43,833 nucleotides of DNA from Chitinophagales bacterium (GCA_020848255.1 JADLAJ010000089.1:1-43833), one strand, 5' to 3'; positions 7,940-38,253 are shown, counted from the first letter of the stretch. Made by a program: numbers and translations. Notes: generated by a model from the sequence alone, not told the origin.

Positions 7940-10297
7940 TTAATAATTTACAGTTAAACCTGCGCCGAAACCCATGTCACTATCATAGTGAATTTTTGCA
8001 CCTAAGTGTTTATTAATGATGTATTTTAATCCTACCATATATTCAGCATCCGTATTAACCATAAAATCCATTCTTAAACGTTTGGTTAAAGGTATATCGG
8101 TTCTCATTAGTTGTATTCTTACATAACCATTGTGATATACTTCAGCCTGTAATTTAATTAACAACGGCATGGTATATTCCAAACCAACGGAAGCTAAAAT
8201 TCTATGGTCTTTTGAGTTCTTTTGCTGGAATAAATTCTTTTCTACTTCAGCCATTCCTAATTTTCGATAACGATAATCAAATCCGACAAACAGTTGTAGA
8301 AATTGCATTTTATCTACATACCTACCTATGTGTGTTTCGATTTCCCAACCATGCATTTTATGATAACCTAAACGCCACTCTGTTCCGATACTCCAACGTT
8401 TGTTTTGCAACATCATTTCACCATCATTACCATTACTTGCAAAATCATTCTCAAACATGAAATGAAATTTTCTATCATCGGCAAATAATTTTCGTTTTGC
8501 TAATTTCGGATTTGGAATTAATGGATTTGGTGCTTGATTTTCATATGTAAACACTCTACCCATTCCACTCATCATGTGATATAAAATATGACAATGAAAA
8601 AACCAATCGCCTTCAACATTAGCATTAAATTCTAAGGTGTCGGTTTCCATAGGCATGATGTCGATTATATTTTTTAGGGGTGCATATTCCCCTTGTCCGT
8701 TTAATACTCTAAAATCGTGACCATGTAAATGCATCGGATGTCGCATCATGGATGCATTATCTAATATCAATCTAATGTTTTCGCCTTTTTTAATTAATAT
8801 TTTATCAGATTCTGAAACTACTTTATTATTTAAACTCCACAGGTATCGATTCATATTGCCAGTCAATGTAAATTTTAATTCTTTAACTGGCGCATCAATT
8901 GGCAAAGTAGTTTTTACAGGTGATTTCAGCATGGCATAATTTAAGGTGACAATATCAGATAATGCATTACCATTATATCTATTTGCGTCATCACTTTCCA
9001 TATCTTGCATTGCGTTATCGCCATTTAGATTCATCTTTTTTGCTAATACTTTATCTTTTCTGTTTTTTGCATTACCAGTTATTTCAGGGTACATTACCAC
9101 ATTCATATCCATTTGATTCAAACTCATTTTCATGCCCATATCGTTTAATTTACCACTCATCTTCATCATGTCATTCATCATCTTCATTCCTTCAAAATAT
9201 TTTAGCTTTGGCAATGAATTATCTAACTGTTTAATTCCATTGCCAATAAATATTGATGTTGATTTTGTTCTGTCTTCAGGTGTAGCTAAGAACTCATAAG
9301 AAATACTATCATTAGGAATTGTTACTATAACATCATAGGTTTCAGAAACGGCAATAATAAGTCTATCAACTTCTACTGGTTCTACATCATTACCATCGTT
9401 TGCTACAACTGTAATTTTTCCACCTGCATACGTTAACCAAAAATAAGAAGATGCACCACCATTTGAGATTCGCAAACGCACCTTATCACCACCTTTAAAT
9501 TGTGATAACTGACTTTCATTTTTTCCATTGATTAAAAATTTATCATAATAAACATCACTTACATCCATTGCTAATTGACGTTTCCATTCGTTTTTTAATT
9601 TGGTTTTAAACTGACCTGCTTTGATGGCTTCTAAATAACTTTGTGTAGTACCTTTTTTTATTGCAAACCAATCAGAAGCATTATGTAACATGCGATGTAC
9701 ATTCTCAGGTTTATAATTTGTCCACTCACTTAGTACAATTGGAACAGTAGGCAAATCATCAATACCTTTTCTAAAAGTAGAATCATCTGTTCTTTTATTC
9801 ATGACAAAACTTCCATACATACCAATTTGCTCTTGCAAACCGCTATGGCTATGATACCAATGTGTACCATGCTGTATTATTGGAAAACGATAGATATGTG
9901 TAGTACCAGGTTTTATTGGCATTTGCGTAAGATTAGGAACTCCATCTTCTTTATTTGGTAAAAACAAACCGTGCCAATGCAATGAGGTTGATTCTTTCAA
10001 TTCATTATGTACATAAATTTCTGCCGTGTCGCCTTCTGTAAAAACAAGTGTAGGCATCGGTATTTGACCATTTACTGCAATTGCATGTTTGGGCTTACCT
10101 GTAAAATTCACAATAGTATCTCTTACATATAAATCGTAATGAACTAATTTTTGTGCAAATGAATTATAAGAAGTTGTTACTGTCACAAATAAAAGAACCG
10201 CTTTACAACATTCTTTTTCACGAATAAAAATTCCTTTAAAAATTCTTTTTAAAAGATTGAAAATCCATTTTAGTATTTTGATTATTTTCTCTTGCAT
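7940..10297 (-). CDS. multicopper oxidase fused to a C-terminal CopB-like outer-membrane domain
   Basis: All four MCO copper motifs are present (HWHG, HWYHSH, HPMHLHGH, HCHILYHMMSGM), with a signal-like N-terminus and a Met-rich segment at 9089..9187. The C-terminal ~180 aa (about 7943..8480) resemble copper resistance protein B and end in an aromatic residue (LTVNY). Confidence 0.8.
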   Translation of the reverse strand: MQEKIIKILKWIFNLLKRIFKGIFIREKECCKAVLLFVTVTTSYNSFAQKLVHYDLYVRDTIVNFTGKPKHAIAVNGQIPMPTLVFTEGDTAEIYVHNELKESTSLHWHGLFLPNKEDGVPNLTQMPIKPGTTHIYRFPIIQHGTHWYHSHSGLQEQIGMYGSFVMNKRTDDSTFRKGIDDLPTVPIVLSEWTNYKPENVHRMLHNASDWFAIKKGTTQSYLEAIKAGQFKTKLKNEWKRQLAMDVSDVYYDKFLINGKNESQLSQFKGGDKVRLRISNGGASSYFWLTYAGGKITVVANDGNDVEPVEVDRLIIAVSETYDVIVTIPNDSISYEFLATPEDRTKSTSIFIGNGIKQLDNSLPKLKYFEGMKMMNDMMKMSGKLNDMGMKMSLNQMDMNVVMYPEITGNAKNRKDKVLAKKMNLNGDNAMQDMESDDANRYNGNALSDIVTLNYAMLKSPVKTTLPIDAPVKELKFTLTGNMNRYLWSLNNKVVSESDKILIKKGENIRLILDNASMMRHPMHLHGHDFRVLNGQGEYAPLKNIIDIMPMETDTLEFNANVEGDWFFHCHILYHMMSGMGRVFTYENQAPNPLIPNPKLAKRKLFADDRKFHFMFENDFASNGNDGEMMLQNKRWSIGTEWRLGYHKMHGWEIETHIGRYVDKMQFLQLFVGFDYRYRKLGMAEVEKNLFQQKNSKDHRILASVGLEYTMPLLIKLQAEVYHNGYVRIQLMRTDIPLTKRLRMDFMVNTDAEYMVGLKYIINKHLGAKIHYDSDMGFGAGLTVNY

Positions 10298-16089: not shown

Positions 16090-18072
16090 CTAAAACTTCA
16101 TCCGCTGTATTCTAATGGCATTTAATATGGCTAATAATGCTACACCAACATCTGCAAAAACCGCTTCCCACATAGTTGCTAAACCACCTGCACCGAGTAT
16201 CAGCACAGCGGCTTTTACCGTGAATGCCAAACCTATGTTTTGCCAAACAATTCGTTTTGTTTGTTTGCCAATATTTATTGCCATTGCTATTTTAGATGGT
16301 TCATCGTTTTGTATTACTACATCAGCTGTTTCAATAGTTGCATCACTACCTAATCCACCCATTGCTATACCTACATTGCTTAATGCTACTACTGGTGCAT
16401 CATTCACTCCATCGCCGACAAATGCAACTGTTTCATTCTTATCTTTAATTTCTTTTACCTTGTTTACTTTGTCTACAGGTAACAAATCACCAAATGCATT
16501 ATCAATGCCTAATTTATCGGCGATGAATTTAACAACAGAAGTTTTATCACCACTCAACATTGTAGTTTTTACTTTCATGCTGTGCAACTTATTTACGGCA
16601 TCTTGTGCATCTTCTTTTATTTCATCGGCAATAGTTAAATATCCAGCGAATTTTTTATCATAAGCAATCGCAATTACAGTATAAACAAGTTCATCGGTAT
16701 TTACATCATACGAAATATTGAATTTATCCATTAACTTGAAATTACCGACTAATAATTCTTTACCATTGATATTAGCTTTTAATCCATGACCTGCAATTTC
16801 CTCAACGTTGGTTAATTGAATGGATGTGTTTACATTTCCTACATACTTTTGAATAGCAGTAGCAACTGGATGTGTGCTTTGGCTTTCTAAAGCATTTACC
16901 ATTTGCAGTATCTCATCTTTATTAAATTCGGTTTTGATATTCACTTCTTGTACATGAAACACACCTTTAGTTAATGTTCCTGTTTTATCCATCACCACAT
17001 TTTGGATATTGGCAATAATATCTAAAAAATTACTTCCTTTAAATAGAATACCGTTCCGAGATGCTGCACCAATACCACCAAAATAACCTAATGGAATACT
17101 GATAACTAAAGCACATGGACAAGAGATAACCAAGAATACTAATGCTCTGTAAAGCCAATCTCTAAATACATAATCACTAACAAATAGCATTGGCAATACA
17201 CAAATGGCAACAGCTAAGAATACAACAATAGGTGTGTAAACTTTGGCGAACTTTCTGATAAATAATTCTGTTGGTGCTTTTTGTGCGGTAGCATTTTGTA
17301 CCAATTCTAATATCTTTGATAGCTTACTATCTTTATATGCCGTTGTTACTTTAATTTGAGAAACTGTATTTAGATTTATCATACCTGCTAAAACAATTTC
17401 ACCTTTTTGTTTGGTATCAGGTTTGCTTTCACCTGTCAACGCTGCTGTATTGAAAGATGCAGTTTCCGAAAGTAACTCACCATCTAAACCTAATTTTTCA
17501 CCTGACTTTAATTGTATAATATCACCAATATTTACCGTTTCTGCTTTTACTGTTTTAGCTTCGTTGTTTTGCAAAACGGTTACTGTATCAGGTCGTTGGT
17601 CAAGTAATGTTTTAATATTGGCTTTGGCTCTTTTAACTGCTAATGTTTGGAATACTTCACCGATTGCATAAAACAACATTACAGCAACACCTTCAGGATA
17701 TTCACCAATAGCAAATGCACCAATAGTTGCAATACTCATTAATAAAAACTCAGAGAATATTTCGCCTTTGCTGATACTCTCAAATGCTTCTTTAAGTACA
17801 GGAAAACCAACAGGAATATAAGCAACAATATACCATGCAATGCGTATATATCCAGTAAACCATGATTGGGTAATGTAGTTATCAAATACAATGGCAATTA
17901 ATAACAATGCTAAAGAAATAATTGCTGGTAAAAACATCCTGAATGTGCTTTGACTTTCTGTATGTTGGTGTTCGTCTTCAACAGAGTGTTTTTCAGCAAG
18001 TTGATTTATTTTTTCTTCCTGAGTACAGCAAAGTTGTTTGCCGTCTTTATCGTAAATATGCTTGTGTTCCAT
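16090..18072 (-). CDS. Zn/Cd/Pb-type (P1B-2-like) heavy-metal P-type ATPase
   Basis: CPC (SCPCALVIS), DKTGT, a TM7 Lys (FTVKAAV), a TM8 DxG (FADVGVALL) and GDGVNDAP. His/Cys-rich N-terminus with no HMA fold. Start at MEHKH (18072) avoids overlap with the upstream gene; the tracked start is 18096. Confidence 0.85.
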   Translation of the reverse strand: MEHKHIYDKDGKQLCCTQEEKINQLAEKHSVEDEHQHTESQSTFRMFLPAIISLALLLIAIVFDNYITQSWFTGYIRIAWYIVAYIPVGFPVLKEAFESISKGEIFSEFLLMSIATIGAFAIGEYPEGVAVMLFYAIGEVFQTLAVKRAKANIKTLLDQRPDTVTVLQNNEAKTVKAETVNIGDIIQLKSGEKLGLDGELLSETASFNTAALTGESKPDTKQKGEIVLAGMINLNTVSQIKVTTAYKDSKLSKILELVQNATAQKAPTELFIRKFAKVYTPIVVFLAVAICVLPMLFVSDYVFRDWLYRALVFLVISCPCALVISIPLGYFGGIGAASRNGILFKGSNFLDIIANIQNVVMDKTGTLTKGVFHVQEVNIKTEFNKDEILQMVNALESQSTHPVATAIQKYVGNVNTSIQLTNVEEIAGHGLKANINGKELLVGNFKLMDKFNISYDVNTDELVYTVIAIAYDKKFAGYLTIADEIKEDAQDAVNKLHSMKVKTTMLSGDKTSVVKFIADKLGIDNAFGDLLPVDKVNKVKEIKDKNETVAFVGDGVNDAPVVALSNVGIAMGGLGSDATIETADVVIQNDEPSKIAMAINIGKQTKRIVWQNIGLAFTVKAAVLILGAGGLATMWEAVFADVGVALLAILNAIRIQRMKF

Positions 18073-18076
18073 ATAA

Positions 18077-18430
18077 TTATTGTTTACAGCATCCATCTAA
18101 TTGTTCTACATATTCAGCAGCAGCCTTTTGGTCGTCGGCATCATAACCAGCTTTATTTATTTGGTCTCTAATGCTTTTAATCTTTGTTTCTGTTGGATTG
18201 TAAGAAACCTTGATTCTTGAATTTGGCACATCTAATGTTACAGTTTTAACTCCTTTTAGTTTCTTTACTGTTTTCTCTATACGAGATTTACATGATTCGC
18301 ATTTACTGCAATGGTCGCAATAGATTTTAGTTTTAATTGTTGCTACTGTATTTGGTGTTTGTGCTGTGCTATTATTTGAAAACATAAATAAAGCTGCTGT
18401 AATTAGAATTAAATTGATTATTGATTTCAT
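18077..18430 (-). CDS. secreted heavy-metal-associated (HMA-like) protein
   Basis: Signal peptide; IYCDHCSKCESCKSRIEKTVKKLKGVKTVTLD; C-terminal GCCKQ. Confidence 0.65.
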   Translation of the reverse strand: MKSIINLILITAALFMFSNNSTAQTPNTVATIKTKIYCDHCSKCESCKSRIEKTVKKLKGVKTVTLDVPNSRIKVSYNPTETKIKSIRDQINKAGYDADDQKAAAEYVEQLDGCCKQ

Positions 18431-18456: not shown

Positions 18457-18825
18457 TTAATTTTTAGTGTTATTGATAATTTCTTTCAAGTCGTTTGGAA
18501 TTTCCATTACCTTTAAAGGTGGTACATTTGCGCCACCTGTATTGCCAGTAGGTATTGTGCCAACAAATGATTTAACACCACCGACTAACAATCGTGGAAT
18601 TTGTCCAATGACTTCTTTTGTATCTTTAATTTTGATACCGAACAAAAGCATTTGCCAATGAACTGCTGTATGTTCTATTGGATAAGGTTGTGCTAAGATG
18701 TGCGCACGTTCTAAGTGATTCCAACTAACAGCTAATTCATTTTTCTGAAATGATACTTTTGCATTGTTTAATTCGGATTGATAGAACGGAATTAATTTAA
18801 CTGGCATTATAGTATTTATCTTCAT
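18457..18825 (-). CDS. DUF3703-like protein
   Basis: 122 aa ORF. HLERAHILAQPYPIEHTAVHWQMLLFGIKIKD is characteristic of this family as recalled. Confidence 0.55.
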   Translation of the reverse strand: MKINTIMPVKLIPFYQSELNNAKVSFQKNELAVSWNHLERAHILAQPYPIEHTAVHWQMLLFGIKIKDTKEVIGQIPRLLVGGVKSFVGTIPTGNTGGANVPPLKVMEIPNDLKEIINNTKN

Positions 18826-18836
18826 AGCATTTAATT

Positions 18837-20138
18837 TTAGTGTTCGTGTGCTTCACCTTGATTAGTTAATTTAGCATTGACAAAGAATGCACCTTTGGTT
18901 ACAATCTTTGCATCTTTAGGTATTTCATTTACTGTGGTTATTGCAGTATAACCAATATTAGAAATACCTTTTACAACTTCGATTCTCTCAAAATTAATAG
19001 TTGGTTGTTTTTCTTTTTCTTCATCGTGTTTTTCATTTGCTGAATGCTTGTGTCCTTCTTCTTCATCGTGATGTTCATCAGGTTTTTTATCAGTAATAAT
19101 AAAAATAAAACTTCTACCTTCTGCATCAACAATAGCTTCATTTGGAACGGCTGCTGTTGTAATATTATTTAAACTCACAATAGCAGTAATATTCATACCA
19201 TCAATTAAACCTGTTTTATTACCTTGTACAGTACAATGTATAGGAATAGTTTTGCTATCATTTTCAAAAGTAGTACCTATACTATAAATTTTAGCATCGT
19301 ATTCGTTAACAGGATTATTTGTAAGTGTAAAGTGAATTACCTGACCAACTTTAAGTAACGGCAAATCTTTTTCAAAAATATTTAAGTCTAAATGCAATTG
19401 ACTATTATCTACAATTTCTGCAACTGGTGATGATACATCTACATAGCTTCCTATTTTAGAAAACACATTACTGATTGTACCACTAATAGGACTTTTAACT
19501 ACTAATGCAGAACGTAAATTATTATTGCTTACACTACTCGGATTAATTCCCATGAGTTGTATTTGTTCTTGCAGAGATGCTTTGCGTGTGCGCAATGTTT
19601 TGAGTTCTGCATCTGCACTCTGATAATTTTTTAAAGCACCTGCGTTGCCATCACTTAATTCTTTTTGTCGTGCCAACTCTTGTTCTGCATAAATAATTTT
19701 ACTTGTCACGGTTAAGTATTCTTCTTGTAATTGTATAAACTGTGGATTAGTGATAGTGGCAATTACCTGACCACTTTTTACATTGCTTCCGACTTGAACA
19801 TTAATTGTTTTAATAACACCACCGTACAAAGATGTTGCATTTGCTTTGTTGTTATTTGGCACACGCAATGCACCGTTAGCTTTAAGTGTAGCTGTTAATT
19901 GTTTTTGTTCAATGCTGCCAAACTGAATACCTACCGTTTTGATTTGTTCATCAGTAAGCGATGCAATAGTAGCTTCTGTGCTTTCTTCTTCAACTTCACC
20001 TGTTGTTTTTTCTTCTTTAGCTTCTTGTGTTGTGCCGTGTTTATGTCCGTCACTTTCATTGTGCGAACAAGCAGTAAGTAGCACTACAAATAGTAGCATT
20101 AAATACTTATTGTTTAAAGATTTTATATTGATTGTCAT
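18837..20138 (-). CDS. efflux RND periplasmic adaptor subunit (CzcB/CusB-like), His-rich
   Basis: Lipobox LLTACS, a coiled-coil hairpin region and barrel-sandwich motifs. His/Glu-rich stretches (HNESDGHKHG, DEHHDEEEGHKHSANEKHDEE, terminal GEAHEH). Immediately downstream of the RND gene. Confidence 0.85.
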   Translation of the reverse strand: MTINIKSLNNKYLMLLFVVLLTACSHNESDGHKHGTTQEAKEEKTTGEVEEESTEATIASLTDEQIKTVGIQFGSIEQKQLTATLKANGALRVPNNNKANATSLYGGVIKTINVQVGSNVKSGQVIATITNPQFIQLQEEYLTVTSKIIYAEQELARQKELSDGNAGALKNYQSADAELKTLRTRKASLQEQIQLMGINPSSVSNNNLRSALVVKSPISGTISNVFSKIGSYVDVSSPVAEIVDNSQLHLDLNIFEKDLPLLKVGQVIHFTLTNNPVNEYDAKIYSIGTTFENDSKTIPIHCTVQGNKTGLIDGMNITAIVSLNNITTAAVPNEAIVDAEGRSFIFIITDKKPDEHHDEEEGHKHSANEKHDEEKEKQPTINFERIEVVKGISNIGYTAITTVNEIPKDAKIVTKGAFFVNAKLTNQGEAHEH

Positions 20139-20144
20139 CTTAGT

Positions 20145-23100
20145 TTATTTACTGATTAGATAATTGATATTAACTACTGTTTGATTAATTTGATGAATAG
20201 ATTGCAGATACTTTAATTCTACATCCGTTTCATTTTGCAATGCCAGTATATATTCAATATAACTTGCATCACCTGTTTTATAACCTAACTTTGCTGCCTT
20301 TATTATTTCTGCTGCTGTCGGCAATGCTTGTTGTTTATAATAATTATATTGCAACATATACTGGTTGTATTGCTGAAACGCATTTACCAACTGAATTTCT
20401 ATTTGATGTTGTTCGTTTTGTGCGGTAGCTTGTAATGCTTGTTTTTGATAATCTAAAGATTTAATTTTTGCCTTAGTTGCGCCAAATGTAAGTGGTATGC
20501 CAATGCCAATAGAACCAACATGAAAACGGTTTCCAGCGTTAAAATATTTTTCCTGATTATTAATCGTTTGAAAGCCGATTAAAGATTGATTATTGTAACC
20601 AAAAGTAAAATCAGGTAAACCAATTGCCTTCTCTACTTTTTTATTTTGTTCGGCAACTGTTGCTTCTTGTAATATCTTTTTAATAATCGGATTTTGTGCA
20701 AGCAAGTTAGTATCTACAATTGTAACAGTTTGCAATGGTAGATACGGTTGTACAGTAGCAATAGAAAAATCATCACTTGTATTCATCCACATTTTTAGCA
20801 GATTATACGTTGCAGTAATATTGTTTTCGCTTTCTTGCAACAATAATTTTATTTCACTTCTTTTTGCTTCGGCTGTTGTTTTTTCTAATTGCTTTGTTTC
20901 ACCAGTTATAAATCTTAAAGCAGATGCGTATACAAAATCAACATACAAGCTGTCTAAATGCAGTAGTTTGTTTTTATTGTTTTCAAAAAATACTAACTGA
21001 TAATAATACGTTTGTACTTGCGCTTTAATTTCGTTTTCAGTTATCTGCTTAGAAAGTTCTTTACTAATAACTTCTGCTTTAACCGCTTCTCTCTTTGCTG
21101 AAAATAAAGAAGGAAACGGAATCGTTTGTGAAATTTCAAAAGCATTATCAAATTTCTTACTGTTGTATTGACCTAACTGTACATTGAAATTTGTTTTAGG
21201 TATTTCTTTTGCAGATTTACTTAAACTTTTAGTTGCTAATACTGCTAATTCATCTGCCTTTAGTTTAGAACTATTCTTTAGTGCAACACTTGTGATTTCT
21301 TCTAAACTTAATTGATTGGTTTGTGCATTAGCAAAATGTGTAGATAATAATAGTATTACTAAGATGCTTGTTATTGATTTCATTGGCTTTTTGTTTAATG
21401 AAATTTTAGAATTGAAAATGATGTATAACAATGGTAATACAAACAAGGTTAAGAAAGTAGCAGTTATTAAACCACCAATTACAACTGTTGCTAATGGTTT
21501 CTGAACTTCTGCACCAGCACTACCACTTAATGCCATTGGTAAAAATCCTAATGAAGCTACGGTTGCTGTCATTAAAACTGGTCGTAAGCGAATTTTTGTA
21601 CCTTCAATAACACGGCTAACAACGTCATTCCAGCCATCTTTTTCTAACTGGTTAAATGTGCCAATCAAAACAATTCCGTTTAAAACCGCTACGCCAAACA
21701 ATGCGATAAAGCCAATACCTGCTGAAATGCTAAAAGGCATACCACGAATTAATAAAGCAAAAACACCACCGATAGCACTCATTGGAATAGCAGTAAAAAT
21801 TAAGGTTGCTTGTTTCAAAGAATTAAACGTGAAGTATAAGAGCATAAAGATTAACAATAAAGAAATTGGTACTGCTATCATTAAGCGTTTAGATGCTTTT
21901 TGAAGATTTTCAAACGTACCACCATAAGTGAAATAATAACCTGACGGCAATTTAATTTCAGCAGTAAGTTTGTGCTGAATCTCCTCCACAACACTTTGAA
22001 CATCTCTTTCATCTACATTAAAACCGACGACTACTCTGCGCTTACCTGCTTCACGGCTAATTTGTGCTGCACCTAATTTATAAGATACGTTTGCAACTTG
22101 TGATAACGGTATTTGATTGCCAAATGATGTAGGTATAAATAAATTATTTACATCGTCAATGGTACTTCTATATGCACTATCTAAACGAACTACTAAATCA
22201 AATTTCCGTTCATTCTCATATACAACTCCAGTAGATTTTCCTGCAAATGCAGTACTGATAATATCGTTTACATCTTCAATATTTAAACCGTAGTTTGCTA
22301 ATCTCATTCTGTCATACTCTACATTGATTTGAGGTAAGCCATCTACACGTTCAATCATTGGTGTTGTTGCTCCATCTACCTTTTGGATAATCTTGCCTAC
22401 TTTGTTTGCATACGCCAAAAGTGTGTCCATATTTTCACCGAAAACTTTAACTGCAACATCTTGTCGAATACCTGTCATTAACTCATTAAATCGCATTTGT
22501 ATCGGCTGATTTTTCTCAAAGAAAACGCCAGGAATAGCTTCTAATCGCTCGATGATTTCATCAGCTAATTCATCATAACTTTTATCTGATTTCCATTCTT
22601 TTTGAGGTTTAAGAATTATCATCATATCTGTTGCTTCAGGTGGCATTGGGTCGGTTGGTACTTCTGCTGCTCCAGTTTTGCCGACAACCATTTTTACCTC
22701 ATCAAATTGTTTTATAATTCGAGATGCTTGCATGGATGTTTCTAAACTTTGGCTAAGAGATGTGCCTTGTGGTAAAATACAATGAAAAGCAAAATCACCT
22801 TCCTGAAGTGTCGGAATAAATTCGCCACCCATTCTGCTAAATATAAATAATGAGGTAGCAAAAAGTATAACTGTAATTGTTATCAGCACGTACTTTAATC
22901 TAATAGCTTTATTTAATAATGGTTGATAGATTTTGTAAAAGAATGCCATCATTTTATCCGATATAGTATCATGTGGTTTTAATTGTTTAGGCAATATTAA
23001 AGCACACATCATAGGTATATAAGTTAACGACAATATCAATGCACCAAAAATTGCAAAGCTAACTGTCATTGCCATTGGCTTGAACATTTTACCTTCAATA

Positions 23101-24503
23101 CCTATTAAAGACAAAATAGGTATATACACTATCAAGATTATTATTTCACCAAAAGCAGCACTACTTCTGATTTTTGAAGCCGACTGAAATACTTCATCAT
23201 CCATTTCTGATTGAGATAGTTTCTGTACGGATTGCCTTAACCCTAAATGGTGTAAGGTGGCTTCTACAATAATTACAGCTCCATCTACAATTAAACCAAA
23301 ATCAATAGCACCTAAACTCATTAAGTTGGCACTAACACCGAACACATTCATTAATGCTAATGCAAATAACATTGATAATGGAATAGCAGAGGCAACAATT
23401 AAACCTGCTCTTAGATTTCCGAGAAACAACACTAAAACAAATATGACTATTAAAGCACCTTCAATAAGATTTTTCTCTACTGTTGATATAGCACGTTTTA
23501 CTAAATCTGTTCTATCTAAATACGCTTCAATTATTATGTCATCAGGTAATGATTTTTGTATGGTTATCATTTTCTCCTTGATGCGTTTTACAACCTCATT
23601 GCTGTTTTCGCCTTTTAGCATCATTACCACACCACCAACTGCATCTACTTCACCGTTATATGTCATAGCACCGTACCGAACAGCATTGCCAAATTTTACT
23701 TCTGCTACATCTTTAATAAAAATTGGTACGCTATTGGCATTACTTTTAACAACAATATTTTTTACGTCTTCTAATGAAGTAACCAAACCAACACCACGAA
23801 TAAAATATGCATTAGGTTTTTTGTCGATGTATGCACCGCCAGTATTTTGATTGTTTTTTTCTAAGGCATTAAAAATATCAGGTATAGTTATACCCATTGC
23901 TTTTAGTCGATTAGGATTGATGGCAACTTCATATTGCTTTAGTTTGCCACCAAAACTATTGACTTCTGCTACTCCTTTTGTACCATTTACTTGACGTGCT
24001 ACAATCCAATCTTGCATGGTGCGCAAATCCATTGCAGTATAGTTATTTTCACTACCTTTTTTGGGATGTAATACATATTGATATACTTCGCCAAGTCCTG
24101 TACTAACTGGTGCTAATTCAGGAATGCCAACGCCTTTTGGTATATCTTCTTCTGCTTCTTTTAGTTTCTCATTAATGAGTTGCCGAGCAAAGTATATATC
24201 TACTTTCTCATCAAAGACAACTGTTATAACAGACAAACCAAACCTTGATATACTTCTTGTTTCTTCAATATCAGGTAGGTTTACAATACTTTGTTCAATA
24301 GGAAACGTAACTAATTGTTCTACTTCCTGACCTGCCAAAGTAGGACAAATAGTAATTATTTGTACCTGATTATTAGTTATATCAGGTACGGCATCAATAG
24401 GTAATTTTGTGGCACTCCACAAACCCCAAATAATAAGTAATAAAGTCATTAAGCCAATAATGAATTTATTTTTTATACTAAAATGAATGATTTTGTCTAA
24501 CAT
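20145..24503 (-). CDS. CzcA-family heavy-metal RND pump fused in frame to a TolC-like outer membrane factor
   Basis: 1452 aa with no stop. Residues 1 to about 1035 are RND, with AIDFGLIVDGAVIIVE in TM4. Residues 1041..1452 start with the signal-peptide-like MKSITSILVILLLSTHFANAQ (Met codon at 21381..21383) and continue as a TolC/CzcC-like domain. Confidence 0.85.
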   Translation of the reverse strand: MLDKIIHFSIKNKFIIGLMTLLLIIWGLWSATKLPIDAVPDITNNQVQIITICPTLAGQEVEQLVTFPIEQSIVNLPDIEETRSISRFGLSVITVVFDEKVDIYFARQLINEKLKEAEEDIPKGVGIPELAPVSTGLGEVYQYVLHPKKGSENNYTAMDLRTMQDWIVARQVNGTKGVAEVNSFGGKLKQYEVAINPNRLKAMGITIPDIFNALEKNNQNTGGAYIDKKPNAYFIRGVGLVTSLEDVKNIVVKSNANSVPIFIKDVAEVKFGNAVRYGAMTYNGEVDAVGGVVMMLKGENSNEVVKRIKEKMITIQKSLPDDIIIEAYLDRTDLVKRAISTVEKNLIEGALIVIFVLVLFLGNLRAGLIVASAIPLSMLFALALMNVFGVSANLMSLGAIDFGLIVDGAVIIVEATLHHLGLRQSVQKLSQSEMDDEVFQSASKIRSSAAFGEIIILIVYIPILSLIGIEGKMFKPMAMTVSFAIFGALILSLTYIPMMCALILPKQLKPHDTISDKMMAFFYKIYQPLLNKAIRLKYVLITITVILFATSLFIFSRMGGEFIPTLQEGDFAFHCILPQGTSLSQSLETSMQASRIIKQFDEVKMVVGKTGAAEVPTDPMPPEATDMMIILKPQKEWKSDKSYDELADEIIERLEAIPGVFFEKNQPIQMRFNELMTGIRQDVAVKVFGENMDTLLAYANKVGKIIQKVDGATTPMIERVDGLPQINVEYDRMRLANYGLNIEDVNDIISTAFAGKSTGVVYENERKFDLVVRLDSAYRSTIDDVNNLFIPTSFGNQIPLSQVANVSYKLGAAQISREAGKRRVVVGFNVDERDVQSVVEEIQHKLTAEIKLPSGYYFTYGGTFENLQKASKRLMIAVPISLLLIFMLLYFTFNSLKQATLIFTAIPMSAIGGVFALLIRGMPFSISAGIGFIALFGVAVLNGIVLIGTFNQLEKDGWNDVVSRVIEGTKIRLRPVLMTATVASLGFLPMALSGSAGAEVQKPLATVVIGGLITATFLTLFVLPLLYIIFNSKISLNKKPMKSITSILVILLLSTHFANAQTNQLSLEEITSVALKNSSKLKADELAVLATKSLSKSAKEIPKTNFNVQLGQYNSKKFDNAFEISQTIPFPSLFSAKREAVKAEVISKELSKQITENEIKAQVQTYYYQLVFFENNKNKLLHLDSLYVDFVYASALRFITGETKQLEKTTAEAKRSEIKLLLQESENNITATYNLLKMWMNTSDDFSIATVQPYLPLQTVTIVDTNLLAQNPIIKKILQEATVAEQNKKVEKAIGLPDFTFGYNNQSLIGFQTINNQEKYFNAGNRFHVGSIGIGIPLTFGATKAKIKSLDYQKQALQATAQNEQHQIEIQLVNAFQQYNQYMLQYNYYKQQALPTAAEIIKAAKLGYKTGDASYIEYILALQNETDVELKYLQSIHQINQTVVNINYLISK

Positions 24504-24592
24504 AGTTAAAATTTAATAATCGTGAATAATGCCGTATCGAATGAATCAATAAGCATAAAAAGCATTACAGCGTAATGCAACAGAATAAACGA

Positions 24593-24904
24593 TTAAGAAA
24601 TTTTAGGTGGCTGCCAAATACTGGCACTAAATTGAGAGCTAAATGTTTGATTGTATATTGCTATACTTTTATTAAAGATTTCAGGCTTTAAAATAGTTTG
24701 TGCTACTGGATAATTAATTTTACTTGTAACAGGCTGACCGCAACAAGCACAAATACAAAACGGCGTACAATTTTCGTTTTCGTGCTTGTGGCTGTTATGA
24801 GATTGTTCAGATTTATTTCCCTCATCACATTCAACACTATCGCTACACGGCGCAAGTGAAAGCACCAAAATGTATATGCTAAATATGATTGTGAAAAATT
24901 TCAT
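24593..24904 (-). CDS. DUF6660-like small Cys/His-rich protein
   Basis: MKFFTIIFSIYILVLSLAPCSD...HKHENENCTPFCICACC is the pattern of the family that typically precedes czcA-like genes in Bacteroidota (recalled). ATG at 24904 preferred over the tracked TTG at 24922. Confidence 0.55.
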   Translation of the reverse strand: MKFFTIIFSIYILVLSLAPCSDSVECDEGNKSEQSHNSHKHENENCTPFCICACCGQPVTSKINYPVAQTILKPEIFNKSIAIYNQTFSSQFSASIWQPPKIS

Positions 24905-25161
24905 TGAGCCAAATATAGACAAAAATAAGTAAAGTCAATTCTAATATGTGTTAACGGTGGTTTACAATTTATTAATATTGTGTGCCGAAATTAGACTTGA
25001 TACATTGAATACAATGGAGTAGTTTTGGATAAATAAAGAAACTCCAGGAATTAAACCCAAACCTATTGTCCTGGTTCTTAACACTTTGTATCTTTAATAC
25101 ATGTTAAGAAGGTTAAATGCTCTTATGTGTAAAATAACAACGAATCAAATTCATTCACCAA

Positions 25162-25524
25162 ATGTCAATCGGTGCTGAATCTCCACTAATTAGTATTAGT
25201 GAAATTGCTGCAATCTTAAAGAAGAAAAATGATGCAGCTATCAAATGGCTAACAGAACATAAAGTTTCAATTCACAAGTTCGGTAAAAGCAGCCATGTTT
25301 ATAAGATTGATTGGTTAATTCTATTAGGTAAAATCTATGCTAAAGAATTAAGAAAAACCTATCCGAATACATGGTCAGATAAATACCGAATGATTGAAAA
25401 AAATGAAATCATATCAGGTATGGTAATACATGAATTGGCTTCTGAAAAAGCATGCTTGCCAACAACGGTGGTTAAACCGATAAATAACAATGATAAAACA
25501 TTTTTAAAAAGTATAACAAGATGA
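25162..25524 (+). CDS. small DNA-binding (excisionase-like) protein
   Basis: 120 aa ORF whose stop overlaps the integrase start (ATGA). The N-terminal ISISEIAAILKKKNDAAIKWLTEHKV resembles an HTH. The function is inferred from position. Confidence 0.4.
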   Translation: MSIGAESPLISISEIAAILKKKNDAAIKWLTEHKVSIHKFGKSSHVYKIDWLILLGKIYAKELRKTYPNTWSDKYRMIEKNEIISGMVIHELASEKACLPTTVVKPINNNDKTFLKSITR

Positions 25525-26816
25525 AAAAACTAAAATTACCAAAGAAGCCTTATACTGGCATGAAAGTATATTGCAATATCTGCAAGAAAGATAACGCAGG
25601 TTGTTCACATTATGACGAACAGAATTATAGAATCAGAATTCACGTCCCTAATACAAAGAATAGAGTTAAAGTAAAAATCTTTGATACTGACGATTACAAT
25701 GATGCCGTCGTACAAGCAATTGAATTTAAAAAACAACTTAATGCCACGAATTATACTCGCATAAAGGTCACAACGGACGGCAATGATTATTCATTAGCTG
25801 GTGCGCTATTAAAGTATAAAAATTACCTTGAAGGCAACCATGAATTAGAGCAAAATAAGAAGTCGGTCTCTAAAGGTCATATAAATGAATCTCTAAGATT
25901 CTGTAAGTTTTTTGCTGGAGTAATTAGTGAAAGAATAAACATACACAATATAAGAGTGATGGATATAGATAAATATGATGTATCTGATTTTTATAAGGCA
26001 TTAAAGAAAAAGAAGTATGAAGGGAAAACATTCAATAAGTGTTTGGCAGCATTGAAAAGGTTTTTTAAATACCTAATAGATGTAGAAGAGATTGATATGA
26101 AAAACCCGTTTGCAGAATATGAATCTAAATCTGTTGCTAAGAAGAATATTATCTCCATCTCAAAAGAAGAATTTTTAAGTATCATTAATGCTGTTGATAC
26201 AGCAAGTCCGTATCAACAATTAGGTGGCAAGGGTGAGGTTAAAAACATGTATAAAGACTATCTAAAGATTGGATTTTGGCTGTGTCTATATACTGGTGGC
26301 AGACGAGAAGAAGTCGTCAACTTGAAATGGAATGATATGGTAATGACAATAAGCGGAAACCTATCGTTTGAAGTCCATAATCTAAAAGTCAATAGAAGGA
26401 ATAATAACGATGATGCTAAGAAATACTTTCCAATATATCCTGATTTTGCCAATCTATTGTATGAATTAGGTTATCCTGATAAAATCAATCGCAACGGATA
26501 TATTCTACATCCTGAAAGAGTGGAATCGGCGCAAACTATAATGGATGCCTTGTCAAAAGCATTTACACATTATAGAATTGCAGCAGGTATTAAAAGAGAT
26601 ATTAGTTTGAGTACACTACGAAAAACATTCATAAGTTGGTTAAATGAAGCTGTCGGCGTAGAAACTGGCTTGTTAACTTCACACACTACCGAAGATGTAT
26701 TAAAAAATCATTATATAGATTCTCAAATTGCATCTGCGATTGATAAAGCAACACATAATGTTAGAATTTTTGGTAAAGATGATTTAGATAAACCTCACTC
26801 CGCATCCTCACTCTAA
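25521..26816 (+). CDS. site-specific tyrosine integrase
   Basis: 431 aa ORF with GGRREEVVNLKWND (Arg), LRKTFISWL and HTTEDVLKNHY (His, Tyr). It lies 70 nt from the tRNA 3' end. Confidence 0.85.
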   Translation: MKKLKLPKKPYTGMKVYCNICKKDNAGCSHYDEQNYRIRIHVPNTKNRVKVKIFDTDDYNDAVVQAIEFKKQLNATNYTRIKVTTDGNDYSLAGALLKYKNYLEGNHELEQNKKSVSKGHINESLRFCKFFAGVISERINIHNIRVMDIDKYDVSDFYKALKKKKYEGKTFNKCLAALKRFFKYLIDVEEIDMKNPFAEYESKSVAKKNIISISKEEFLSIINAVDTASPYQQLGGKGEVKNMYKDYLKIGFWLCLYTGGRREEVVNLKWNDMVMTISGNLSFEVHNLKVNRRNNNDDAKKYFPIYPDFANLLYELGYPDKINRNGYILHPERVESAQTIMDALSKAFTHYRIAAGIKRDISLSTLRKTFISWLNEAVGVETGLLTSHTTEDVLKNHYIDSQIASAIDKATHNVRIFGKDDLDKPHSASSL

Positions 26817-30074: not shown

Positions 30075-32177
30075 TCAAATATTTCCATTGTATTTACGAA
30101 TAAACCATTCACTTATCAACAGTAACAGAATGATAAAAAACAACCATTTCATGTCAATCAGAGGGCGTGTACTAAAAGTATCATACAGAATGGATTTTAT
30201 AGTAGCATTTTTTTCTATATCATCCGCGATGCCGGACATCGTTGCCGGAGTGTACGATTTTCCTCCGGATTGTGTGGAGATGATGTTCAATAACTGATGA
30301 TTTGCCTGTGTATTCAATGTCTCAATAATTACCGGGCGAACAGAGAAATTGCTCGTTGCCGCATTCGCTTTTCCTTTGTAGGTAGCTTTTGCATTGATAG
30401 TATAATTCCCTACCGGCAAAACTCCTGCATTTAAGGTATATGCGTTAATCGTTTTATCAAAAGTATAGGCATACTCTTTGCCATTGTCGCCTTTTACCAC
30501 ACAGTTGGCATCCACATCGTTCACCAGTTCATAACTTTCGTTATACAATTCTGCATCTATCTGTATCGCTTCGTTGGCATTAAATACATTCTTCGGGGTA
30601 TGTACGCGGAAACGGCGCTTATCTCCTTTTACGGTTAAATACTGTATGCACTTGTTAATGATTTCATCGGTAGCATCAAATTTTTTGGTTTGAGCAAATT
30701 CTGTCAATCGCCAGCGCCAGATACCTTCGCCACATATGATTCCTGTTTTTTTCCCGTTTACTTCATTAAATGCAATCAACGGATTTCCGGTTGGAACTGA
30801 GCCAATCTTCTGTTTGTAAAAAATATCCAATGTGGTGGCAATCAGGTATTTTCCAAAAGGTGCCAGCAATGGCGGTAAGGTTTGAATGGTTTTATCTGCG
30901 GTTTCACTAAGTGTAAACTTGGAGAACGCAGGATTGTAAATCGGATAAACGTCATTACCATTCAGCGACGAACCCGTTACCTGTAAAATTTGCTGTAAAC
31001 TATTGTACTGAGCCAGGTTGGTATTGGCAGAAAGCACAAAAAATAAAGGCGTACCGGATGCAATGATCTCCGAAATCAAATTAATTTTTGCGGCTGCTCC
31101 GTTGGATGGCAATCCATGCAGAATAATTAAATCATCCTCTTTATAATTGCCGTTATAGTTTTTAATATCTGCTTCTTCAAACTGATAGTTTTTGTTTTGT
31201 TCGATGGCATTTCTGAATGCCTTCACATCAGGGTGCGGGGCATCGTAGAGCATCAGCACTTTCTGACGTCCGTCTATCACCTCCACATAAGCTATGTCAT
31301 AATTATTTTCAGTAATCGTTTCGCCGGCTAGTGTTTTCAGTTTTATTCTGTACTGCAACACACCCGGTTTCAGGGCATCACCCACGGCATCTGTCTGAAA
31401 AGTAAATCTGTCCTCTGTGATACTGATAACTTTATTTAAAATCACTTTTCCGTCCGGTGCCGTAATTTCCAGCACGGTACTTTGCCCCTGCAGGTGGTTG
31501 GCTTCTATCTGCACATTGATGGTAAACTGATCACCGAGGTAGACGATTTCCGGGTAGCGCACGCTTTTTATGAGTGCATCTTTTTTGATGGAAGTATCAC
31601 CGAGTGCGATGGTATAAAACGGAATGCTTAATGCATTTCTATTGTACAACGGAGAATTTCCTTTGTTGAAAATTCCGTCGGATGCCAAAATAAGCGCGCC
31701 GATATTTTGTGAGCCATGTCGGGTAAAAACTTCATCTATGGCGTTGGAAATATCGGTTTCTTTTTCCGTATAAGCGGGCGATTTAAAATCTGTTAATGCA
31801 TCACCGAAATTATAAGAAACCAGTTCATATTTATCTTTTATTTTTTCCTGCAGTGTCTGTAATTGCTGCGCATACTTTTCTTTGGAGAAATTCCCAAATG
31901 ATACATTTAGTGAAGAAGAATTGTCCTGCAATAACAGTATAATAGGTTTTTCCTCTTCCGTTCTTTTCGTTTTGATTAATAAAGACAACAATAAAAAAGC
32001 AATCAAACTGGTGGATAAAAACCGCAGGAATGCCAATCCATATCGCCACCATTTATGTTCATTTTCAGAGAAAACAAACTTCTTTCTGCCATATAAAATA
32101 TAGGCAAATAAAATACCTGTTGCTATACAAAACAGCAAAAACCACCAGGGATATTCGAGCATGAAAGATGTTTTCAT
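30075..32177 (-). CDS. membrane-anchored VWA-like domain protein
   Basis: 700 aa ORF with two N-terminal TM helices, ILLLQDNSSSL (VWA MIDAS-like DxSxS) and a C-terminal TM (WLFFIILLLLISEWFIRK). Confidence 0.5.
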   Translation of the reverse strand: MKTSFMLEYPWWFLLFCIATGILFAYILYGRKKFVFSENEHKWWRYGLAFLRFLSTSLIAFLLLSLLIKTKRTEEEKPIILLLQDNSSSLNVSFGNFSKEKYAQQLQTLQEKIKDKYELVSYNFGDALTDFKSPAYTEKETDISNAIDEVFTRHGSQNIGALILASDGIFNKGNSPLYNRNALSIPFYTIALGDTSIKKDALIKSVRYPEIVYLGDQFTINVQIEANHLQGQSTVLEITAPDGKVILNKVISITEDRFTFQTDAVGDALKPGVLQYRIKLKTLAGETITENNYDIAYVEVIDGRQKVLMLYDAPHPDVKAFRNAIEQNKNYQFEEADIKNYNGNYKEDDLIILHGLPSNGAAAKINLISEIIASGTPLFFVLSANTNLAQYNSLQQILQVTGSSLNGNDVYPIYNPAFSKFTLSETADKTIQTLPPLLAPFGKYLIATTLDIFYKQKIGSVPTGNPLIAFNEVNGKKTGIICGEGIWRWRLTEFAQTKKFDATDEIINKCIQYLTVKGDKRRFRVHTPKNVFNANEAIQIDAELYNESYELVNDVDANCVVKGDNGKEYAYTFDKTINAYTLNAGVLPVGNYTINAKATYKGKANAATSNFSVRPVIIETLNTQANHQLLNIISTQSGGKSYTPATMSGIADDIEKNATIKSILYDTFSTRPLIDMKWLFFIILLLLISEWFIRKYNGNI

Positions 32178-37146: not shown

Positions 37147-38253
37147 ATGCGTAAATACTATGTACTTCTGTTGCTTTCATTAAGCATTGCAAGTTGCCAA
37201 AACAGTGACGCCAAAAAATCCGGAAACAACAATGCATCTGAAAATCCGGCAGGTTCGTCTGACTCCAAAACGTCCGGAGCAAAATCTAACGGATACTGGG
37301 AAAAACTGGTAATGAATGAGATAGGTGACGGGAAAGGTGGTGTGGCCGCCATTATGCCAATGCCTGCCGGCTGGAAATTTGTGAAAGGCGGTATCACCGG
37401 TCCACACGGTGTTAAGGTAACTGATTTTGCACTTCGTTCTTTTATGATTAATTACAACCAGAGTTTACAATATGCCTATTCTCAGACCCAACAGCGTTCA
37501 TTACCGGATATTGAAACATTGATACAAGAGGATTTTGTACCGGTAGGTGCAAAAAATGGATTAACTTATATAAAATCTTATGAGTTGCCCGAAGTATCAA
37601 AAATGGATAAATGGTATAGTGACCAATTATTTAAAGCTCTTCCAAGCACTTCCGAAGTAAAAGCATACGGCACGGAATGGAAATACCAAAATGGAAATCC
37701 TTATTTTTTAATCATACATGTGAATGCAAGCACTTCGCAAACCATGCAGAACTGGTATTATATGTCATCCGGTTTGGATGCAGAACCCGCGTATTTTGAA
37801 ACGGCCAAAAAACAATATATTTTTTCTCTGGCAAACACGAGATATAATATCGAACCGATTATAGCATATAACAAAGAAGAAGCACAACGTTGCGGGCAAA
37901 GCTGGGCGGCATTCAACAAAAAAATGGCGGCTAACCAGGCGGCTTTTGAAGCTTCACAGATTGCACACATCAATAAATCAAATGCCATCAACGATGCGAT
38001 TATGAGTAACTGGAAAGCGAATGATGCGGCCAGCGACAGACAACAGGAAAGAACCATAGATGGTATTTACGAACGTACGAATGTACAAAATACGGAAACC
38101 GGCAAAAACTATAAAGTGCAGGAAGGAGCCAATCAATACTGGATGAATAACGACGGAGAATACATCGGCACTAAACAGCAGGGCTATAATCCAAATCTGG
38201 ATGAAAGTATGAACGAGCAGAAATGGCAGGAATTAAAAAGGATAAAAAAATAA
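37147..38253 (+). CDS. hypothetical lipoprotein
   Basis: 368 aa ORF with the lipobox LSIASC. No recognisable catalytic motif. Confidence 0.5.
   Translation: MRKYYVLLLLSLSIASCQNSDAKKSGNNNASENPAGSSDSKTSGAKSNGYWEKLVMNEIGDGKGGVAAIMPMPAGWKFVKGGITGPHGVKVTDFALRSFMINYNQSLQYAYSQTQQRSLPDIETLIQEDFVPVGAKNGLTYIKSYELPEVSKMDKWYSDQLFKALPSTSEVKAYGTEWKYQNGNPYFLIIHVNASTSQTMQNWYYMSSGLDAEPAYFETAKKQYIFSLANTRYNIEPIIAYNKEEAQRCGQSWAAFNKKMAANQAAFEASQIAHINKSNAINDAIMSNWKANDAASDRQQERTIDGIYERTNVQNTETGKNYKVQEGANQYWMNNDGEYIGTKQQGYNPNLDESMNEQKWQELKRIKK

Follow-up and report, generated by a model that had tools for sequence, protein, structure and literature searches.

Tripartite efflux pumps are usually described as three separate proteins. 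How could a single open reading frame (ORF) supply both the inner-membrane pump and the outer-membrane channel of such a system? This question is raised by the minus-strand ORF at 20145..24503 in a 43,833-nucleotide stretch of DNA from a Chitinophagales bacterium (GCA_020848255.1, JADLAJ010000089.1:1-43833), the whole of which we call the window. The ORF joins a heavy-metal-efflux resistance-nodulation-division (HME-RND) pump to an outer-membrane factor (OMF). We find that this fusion is a genuine gene architecture, widespread in Bacteroidota. We further consider it probable that it is an anciently fused gene of three-part, Zn/Cd/Co-type RND efflux, with a precursor cleaved at an internal signal peptide and an extra internal start in the subclade of the window. 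The parts of the ORF are listed here, with an arrow marking a predicted cut.

20145..24503, minus strand: fused czcA~czcC-like ORF (P0001), 1452 aa, one open frame without a stop; ACR_tran plus OEP domains, TIGR00914 at 1192 bits
21402..24503, minus strand: HME-RND pump part, residues 1-1034, with 12 transmembrane (TM) helices, CzcA/ZneA-like; aligns end to end with ZneA and CusA
23259..23303, minus strand: TM4 proton-relay motif D401-F-G..D407-G-A..V-E414-A415, from the alignment to ZneA (DFGIIVDGAIVVMEN), with Asn changed to Ala
21378..21401, minus strand: basic cytoplasmic loop SLNKKPMK, residues 1035-1042, holding Met1041, a candidate internal start in A-rich context
21342..21377, minus strand: hydrophobic core of the putative internal signal peptide, residues 1043-1054, SITSILVILLLS; a short uncharged core is present in all fused homologues
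21324..21341, minus strand: c-region THFANA with a predicted signal peptidase I (SPase I) site A-N-A↓Q after residue 1060 (small-x-small, then Q)
20148..21323, minus strand: mature OMF, residues 1061-1452, 392 aa, recognised by an AlphaFold2 (AF2) model and Foldseek matches

The fused frame is genuine and widespread

The translated ORF runs from pump into channel without interruption over 1452 aa, as an earlier note made from this sequence alone had claimed, and the seam reads ...LLYIIFNSKISLNKKP-MKSITSILVILLLSTHFANA-QTNQLSLEEI..., as quoted there. Pfam places ACR_tran at residues 5-1030 (E 1e-290; profile positions 1-1020 of 1021) and OEP (PF02321) in two stretches of the channel half (E 1.9e-26), reaching up to residue 1450. 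The CusA/CzcA model TIGR00914 (NCBIfam) scored 1192.5 bits against a cut-off of 701.45 over residues 1-1034, and RND homology stops at residue 1034. Between the pump (1-1034) and the channel protomer (1061-1452) lies a seam of 26 residues that is built like a Sec signal peptide.

The best 120 database homologues were all 1436-1458 aa long, with a query coverage of 100% (99% for three) and identities of 72-94%. A 97%-identical copy in the same open frame was present in a same-genus genome of 3 contigs, and a 94%-identical ENA protein has the same frame. A 551-residue query across the seam was run against 401 sampled Bacteroidota genomes; 124 of them, from 68 of the 179 genera, have a full-length match that lies in an uninterrupted frame of 1437-1523 aa. 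Identity of the fused homologues went down to 30-35% in distant groups (OMF part). No such match came from two large families (0/87 and 0/17). Flavobacterium johnsoniae and Chryseobacterium are examples of genomes with a fused homologue. Among 1.84 billion cluster representatives, 899 clusters matched at E <= 1e-30; of the 150 best, nearly all align across the seam without a break. A metagenome scan yielded 463 relatives; among the 80 kept, 78 were fused, one was split and one was frameshifted inside the signal peptide. Taxa among the cluster members and ESM Atlas matches were Bacteroidota/Chitinophagaceae only, and no search was aimed at other phyla.

An RND-only search (residues 560-1040) was run against 201 genomes. 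The earlier note had proposed that a stop at the seam in all homologues would mean an assembly error. The stop is not uniform: at identities of at least 51% there were 81 matches, of which 77 were fused and 4 were not. Below about 47% identity all matches were ordinary pumps of ~1030-1065 aa.

At L099:3352-3590 (JAABUN010003936.1) a one-base frame change in the signal-peptide region gives the pump a foreign tail and leaves the OMF without a start or signal; this locus is a pseudogene or else misassembled. Two same-genus genomes, G013 (four places) and G015 (two places), carry diverged fused paralogues that are 40-81% identical to the window's gene over the seam and OMF part.

The seam has the grammar of a signal peptide

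The seam is made up of the SLNKKPMK loop, the 12-residue hydrophobic core, THFANA, Gln1061 and, a few residues on, the first OMF helix, with ~12 residues between the core and that helix. Tested as a signal peptide, KKPMK / SITSILVILLLS / THF-A-N-A↓Q fits a basic n-region, a hydrophobic core, small residues at -3 and -1 and Gln at +1. The Met1041 codon occupies 21383..21381, and the predicted cut A1060↓Q1061 falls between 21324 and 21323. Location sets the fused form apart from ordinary signal peptides, as this one begins at residue 1041, behind a 12-TM protein, and not at an N-terminus.

Seams were extracted from 47 genome loci, and a further 56 distinct metagenome seams had an assignable site. 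In all 47 genome seams the loop has a net charge of +2 to +6, and the uncharged run of core plus c-region spans 13-25 residues (median 19). The core itself measures ~11-16 residues across fused seams and is followed by a polar c-region and, where a site was assigned, by small-x-small↓Q. Residue -1 is Ala, less often Gly, Ser or Thr, and residue +1 is Gln; the metagenome seams are alike. The sequence of the segment varies freely among homologues while its character stays constant. Since the sequence itself drifts, the conserved thing appears to be the grammar of a cleavable Sec signal, in agreement with the complete Sec signal peptide with an ANA-Q site that the earlier note had seen after the last RND helix. 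Gln at +1 follows the Bacteroidetes Q-rule, by which SPase I substrates of that group expose this residue in 71% of cases on average and the Gln is subsequently cyclised (PMC5837995). The source genome contains a gene for SPase I.

We modelled the OMF part (residues 1061-1452) by AF2 with 38 aligned homologues, giving a predicted local distance difference test (pLDDT) of 90.6 and a predicted template-modelling score (pTM) of 0.81. The model has short helices, barrel strands and a long-helix hairpin unit twice, with a longest helix of ~70 residues, and its N-terminus lies ~40 helical residues below the barrel. Foldseek matched it to SilC (9rmm), CusC (3pik), TolC and OprM at template-modelling scores of 0.77-0.80 over ~400 columns. 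As modelled, the channel half is a complete OMF protomer and not a fragment; the OEP matches and the scores of ~0.8 to SilC, CusC and TolC bear out the TolC/CzcC-like domain that had been placed after the seam. SilC and CusC are the best structural matches. CusC is a lipoprotein with an N-terminal Cys, whereas here this Cys is replaced by ANA↓Q. The lipoprotein subclass of OMFs (NodT/CusC/OprM) was ruled out, the site being A-N-A↓Q and Cys being absent from +1 in 47 of 47 genome seams.

Split relatives and the history of the fusion

Five relatives are split, four in genomes (L051-L054) and one in a metagenome (L138). They keep the gene order pump, OMF, adaptor (A-C-B) and share the signal peptide ending A↓Q or G↓Q, but differ from the fused genes by a stop codon between pump and OMF. 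Their RND identity to the window's gene is 57-59% for L051-L053 and 55% for L054. In L051 an in-frame TAG stands two codons ahead of the OMF ATG; in L052, L053 and L138 the ATG lies 6-25 nt downstream of the pump stop, in another frame; and in L054 the OMF ATG overlaps the pump stop. In all five, the split OMF opens with a normal N-terminal signal peptide whose A↓Q or G↓Q end coincides with the position of the fused seam. The same kind of start is seen in eight representatives of stand-alone OMFs (33-52% identical). Judged from these comparisons, seam and true signal peptide are homologous. A genome scan with the stand-alone OMF P0127 gave fused loci only. The order RND(~)OMF followed by the membrane-fusion protein (MFP) adaptor is common to L048-L054.

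In a maximum-likelihood tree of the RND part the unfused HME pumps fall outside, and fused and split forms make up one clade (support 95/75; inner 54 rows 100/100). The four split forms from genomes stand at four places, each beside fused genes (supports 100/95, 100/99, 97/93 and 81/53). The simplest history suggested by this tree is a single fusion that was later undone at least four times (L051-L054).

Branching in the RND tree disagrees with taxonomy. Next to the operon, on its upstream side, is an integrase-like gene of 431 aa (25521..26816, plus strand). A Chitinophagales metagenome-assembled genome (L050; integrase-like gene at 568-1863) has the same layout: 431-aa gene, fused ORF, 433-aa adaptor and ATPase. 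Because the tree departs from taxonomy and the integrase-like gene recurs in the same layout, the operon appears to move horizontally. This points to a mobile metal-resistance island. The gene's role in the cell is an ordinary one, in metal resistance.

Proposed cleavage of the precursor and probable initiation at Met1041

SPase I cleavage of the precursor is the best explanation of these sequences as the ancestral and general route across the family. About 20 of the 47 genome seams have no ATG, GTG or TTG upstream of the hydrophobic core. Furthermore, 8 of the 56 metagenome seams, including a marine subclade, have no start codon at all in the stretch scanned, which reaches into the core, and their signal and OMF are intact. 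Because many seams without a start codon keep both signal and OMF, internal initiation cannot be the general route. Since the pump has no stop, every ribosome finishing it reads on into the OMF. The uncut protein could not be expected to work, because the linker of ~12 residues is too short to span from the inner membrane to the assembled channel; published AcrAB-TolC and CusCBA structures suggest that the OMF N-terminus would be far from the inner membrane in assembled pumps.

The cleavage route would run as follows. The 12-helix pump would be made first, with its C-terminus in the cytoplasm, and the Lys-rich loop would lead into the OMF signal peptide. The signal peptide would insert N-in/C-out as a short thirteenth helix while the OMF part is threaded through the Sec translocon; this topology, which would place the OMF part in the periplasm, had been proposed in the earlier note and is consistent with the features of the seam. 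SPase I would cut after Ala1060, leaving Gln1061 as the new N-terminus, where cyclisation to pyroglutamate is expected in Bacteroidota. Once released, the OMF of 392 residues would pass to the outer membrane, trimerise and dock via the adaptor onto the pump trimer, which would keep the signal peptide as a C-terminal tail. Pump and channel would be produced in equal amounts.

In the window's own subclade a possible start codon at the seam is also maintained. Among 121 close proteins the seam start column holds Met in 89, Val in 26 and other residues in 6, and is of the ATG/GTG type in 115. In the DNA of relatives at identities of at least 60% the codon is ATG in 15, GTG in 7 and another in 4. 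All seven Val codons at the seam are GTG, against 14.5% GTG among the Val codons of the same genes (126/866), and the seam is the only all-GTG column among the 15 columns that are all-Val in the seven sequences. At fourfold sites, identity between the deepest lineages among them is only 34-46%, near saturation. Selection therefore seems to act on a start-capable codon and not on the amino acid, since the Val codons at the seam are all the rare GTG despite these near-saturated sites. The context upstream of Met1041 is A-rich, and such a context has been reported for initiation without a Shine-Dalgarno (SD) sequence in Bacteroidetes. Independent initiation at Met1041 is probably also used in this subclade, adding OMF: translation from Met1041 would supply part of the OMF separately, with the same signal peptide serving for export. 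In our reading both routes use one signal peptide and give the same mature OMF.

The earlier note had left cleavage and an internal Met start as alternatives. Each finds its place, cleavage family-wide (from the seams without a start codon) and the internal start in the window's subclade (from the kept ATG/GTG). Its expectation of 1:1 co-expression by either route agrees with cleavage but does not strictly hold for the internal start.

The OMF might instead be made essentially only from Met1041, like any ordinary gene of an operon, the 1452-aa read-through being a by-product, processed or not, of an upstream stop missing by chance. We judge this unlikely, although the start codon kept in 115 of 121 close homologues, the rare GTG at seven of seven Val codons, the A-rich upstream context and the separate start of the five split relatives are all what it would lead one to expect. 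Fused genes of other subclades that have no start codon upstream of the core nevertheless keep an intact OMF and signal peptide, and, as there is no stop after the pump, the fused product is made in any case. Moreover, 77 of the 81 close RND relatives stay open, though one-step changes from Lys to stop should be easy. A dedicated internal promoter for the OMF was ruled out as well. The Bacteroidetes-type motif TTTG..TAnnTTTG was absent near the seam (the window has 2 matches against 3.5 expected, both on the plus strand), and sigma-70-like sites were no commoner than in shuffles (49 against 43.7).

Far less probable still is an uncut protein in which the seam is a permanent thirteenth TM helix and the OMF-like domain works tethered to the pump. 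In its favour, cleavage is still a prediction for every member of the family, and a hydrophobic segment after a cytoplasmic C-terminus can anchor in the membrane. The core of ~11-16 residues with a polar c-region and small-x-small↓Q is, however, the pattern of a cleaved signal and not of an anchor; a full beta-barrel-forming OMF would have to reach the outer membrane on a linker of ~12 residues; and the split relatives show that the OMF functions as a free protein. On core length, cleavage motif and geometry we rejected the permanent tether. An assembly or sequencing artefact, or a pseudogene without its stop codon, has a negligible chance of being the answer: the window does come from a fragmented assembly (381 contigs, 86.6% complete), but hundreds of genomes and metagenomes independently show this frame, even where the OMF part is no more than 30-35% identical, and purifying selection is clear on both halves; assembly error was ruled out by the homologues, the same-genus copy, the 401-genome survey and the metagenome scan.

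Several points weigh against the account of a cleaved precursor for divalent-metal efflux. To our knowledge, bacteria rarely have an internal cleavable signal peptide behind 12 TM helices, and the account assumes that SPase I gains efficient access. The cleavage sites were set by rules, by eye and script. The conserved ATG/GTG could mean that the OMF comes mostly from internal initiation, with the full-length product minor. The metal substrate is assigned by comparison, from bit scores to ZneA and CusA that are close overall (663 and 622), from the missing methionine (Met) triad of CusA and from Zn/Cd-type neighbours (below). Plant-type glutaminyl cyclase (PF05096) was not found in the 86.6%-complete genome (animal-type was not searched), and the supplements of the Q-rule paper hold no CzcA or RND entry (PMC5837995). 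We incline, if only slightly, towards the fuller account, in which the gene encodes a polyprotein that feeds two membranes, arose once and has been kept by selection in about one third of the sampled Bacteroidota genomes, with an internal start maintained in some lineages.

Precedent and implications

The literature searched gave no description of a pump-channel fusion or of its biogenesis, and no proteomic evidence; subscription journals were mostly outside this search, so that absence is not proven. A pump-channel fusion is mentioned neither in a major review of tripartite pumps (PMC8277102) nor in a 2024 phylogeny of HME pumps (PMC10872679). The gene is a widespread and apparently unstudied variant of a well-known system, of which the biogenesis route is the interesting part. 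Thousands of such genes stand in databases as 'CusA/CzcA family RND transporter', their entries recording the two Pfam domains. Because fused genes are named only as RND transporters, genome surveys undercount OMFs in Bacteroidota, and such operons may be scored as having no channel.

The only bacterial precedent known to us for a polytopic protein with an internally signalled partner is FbcH of Bradyrhizobium japonicum. This cytochrome b-c1 precursor is said to be split at an internal signal peptide, in work of Thony-Meyer and co-workers from about 1989-1991. FbcH likewise places a polytopic membrane protein and then an exported partner in one ORF, has an internal signal sequence and is processed into two subunits. 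The families are unrelated, and FbcH leaves both its products at the inner membrane, whereas the OMF part is predicted to reach the outer one.

If precursor cleavage is correct, a cleavable signal peptide inside a single translation product would send its two halves to different membranes, something rare among bacteria. The gene would also be a natural way of fixing a 1:1 ratio of pump to channel and a convenient system for Sec/SPase I action behind a polytopic domain. The pump would carry a leftover thirteenth helix, and some lineages would have two biogenesis routes for one channel. Bacteroidota, without SD-based translational coupling, may fix subunit ratios by ORF fusion.

Pump family and likely metal

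The pump part aligned with ZneA (PDB 4k0e) at 663 bits over residues 1-1034 and with CusA at 622 bits; over the last TM bundle the scores were 146 bits for ZneA and 72 bits for CusA. ZneA is the closest relative with a solved structure, and the TM4 residues D-F-G..D-G-A..V-E are shared with it. The TM4 string DFGLIVDGAVIIVE is present, with D401, D407 and E414 kept, and the residue after VE is Ala (A415), not Asn. The motif DFG-DGA-VEN, attributed to Nies in 2003, is reportedly the HME-RND signature of the divalent-cation type (CzcA/ZneA). From this motif the earlier note had argued for a divalent cation and against Cu/Ag. The divalent type and the Asp/Asp/Glu residues stand, but the motif ends VEA, not VEN.

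The Cu(I) site of CusA is a triad of methionines, M573/M623/M672 (PMC8092243). These positions align with H574/A624/E674 in the pump part. CusA (PDB 3k07), from the Cu/Ag systems CusCFBA/SilCBA, is almost as similar overall as ZneA, but its Met triad is absent here, and on this ground a CusA-type Cu(I)/Ag(I) pump was ruled out. A divalent-cation (Zn/Cd/Co) type and not a Cu/Ag type is supported, because ZneA is closer, the TM4 residues are kept, the Cu(I) triad is absent and a Zn/Cd-type ATPase adjoins; similarity, the absent triad and the neighbouring genes are what point to this substrate.

A His-Cys pair, H574-C575 (22779..22784, minus strand), lies at and beside the position of CusA M573, a further difference from ZneA/CzcA besides the Ala after VE. 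E674 aligns with M672, and D626 with E625. Around H574-C575 there may be a variant of the periplasmic metal site.

The tripartite divalent-cation efflux systems CzcCBA of Cupriavidus metallidurans and ZneCAB are likewise composed of an HME-RND pump, an adaptor and an OMF. They are encoded by three genes, whereas here pump and OMF share one ORF, the order is A~C then B, and the OMF signal peptide is internal. The classical czc gene order is C-B-A.

The operon and its surroundings

The fused ORF is the second gene of a tight, co-directional operon with the order DUF6660, fused ORF, MFP, DUF3703, HMA (heavy-metal-associated) protein and P1B ATPase. Its other genes are these.

24593..24922, minus strand: DUF6660 small protein gene, first in the operon (PF20365, E 1.6e-10)
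18837..20138, minus strand: periplasmic adaptor (MFP), 433 aa, 6 nt 3' of the fused ORF (HlyD_D23; TIGR01730)
18457..18825, minus strand: DUF3703 gene, downstream and co-directional (family search)
18077..18430, minus strand: gene for an exported HMA protein, downstream and co-directional (family search)
16090..18096, minus strand: Zn/Cd-type P1B ATPase gene, downstream and co-directional (TIGR01512 at 483 bits; ZntA-type models below their cut-offs)

Elsewhere in the window, a multicopper oxidase ORF of 785 aa (7940..10297, minus strand) matched Pfam at residues 60-588 only, its last ~200 residues having no match at E 1e-5. Two ORFs had no Pfam family at the same threshold, one of 700 aa at 30075..32177 (minus strand) and one of 368 aa at 37147..38253 (plus strand). 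Within the operon, a terminator-like hairpin followed by a T-run lies at 24562..24578 (minus strand), after the DUF6660 gene and ahead of the fused ORF, and could be an attenuator or a partial terminator.

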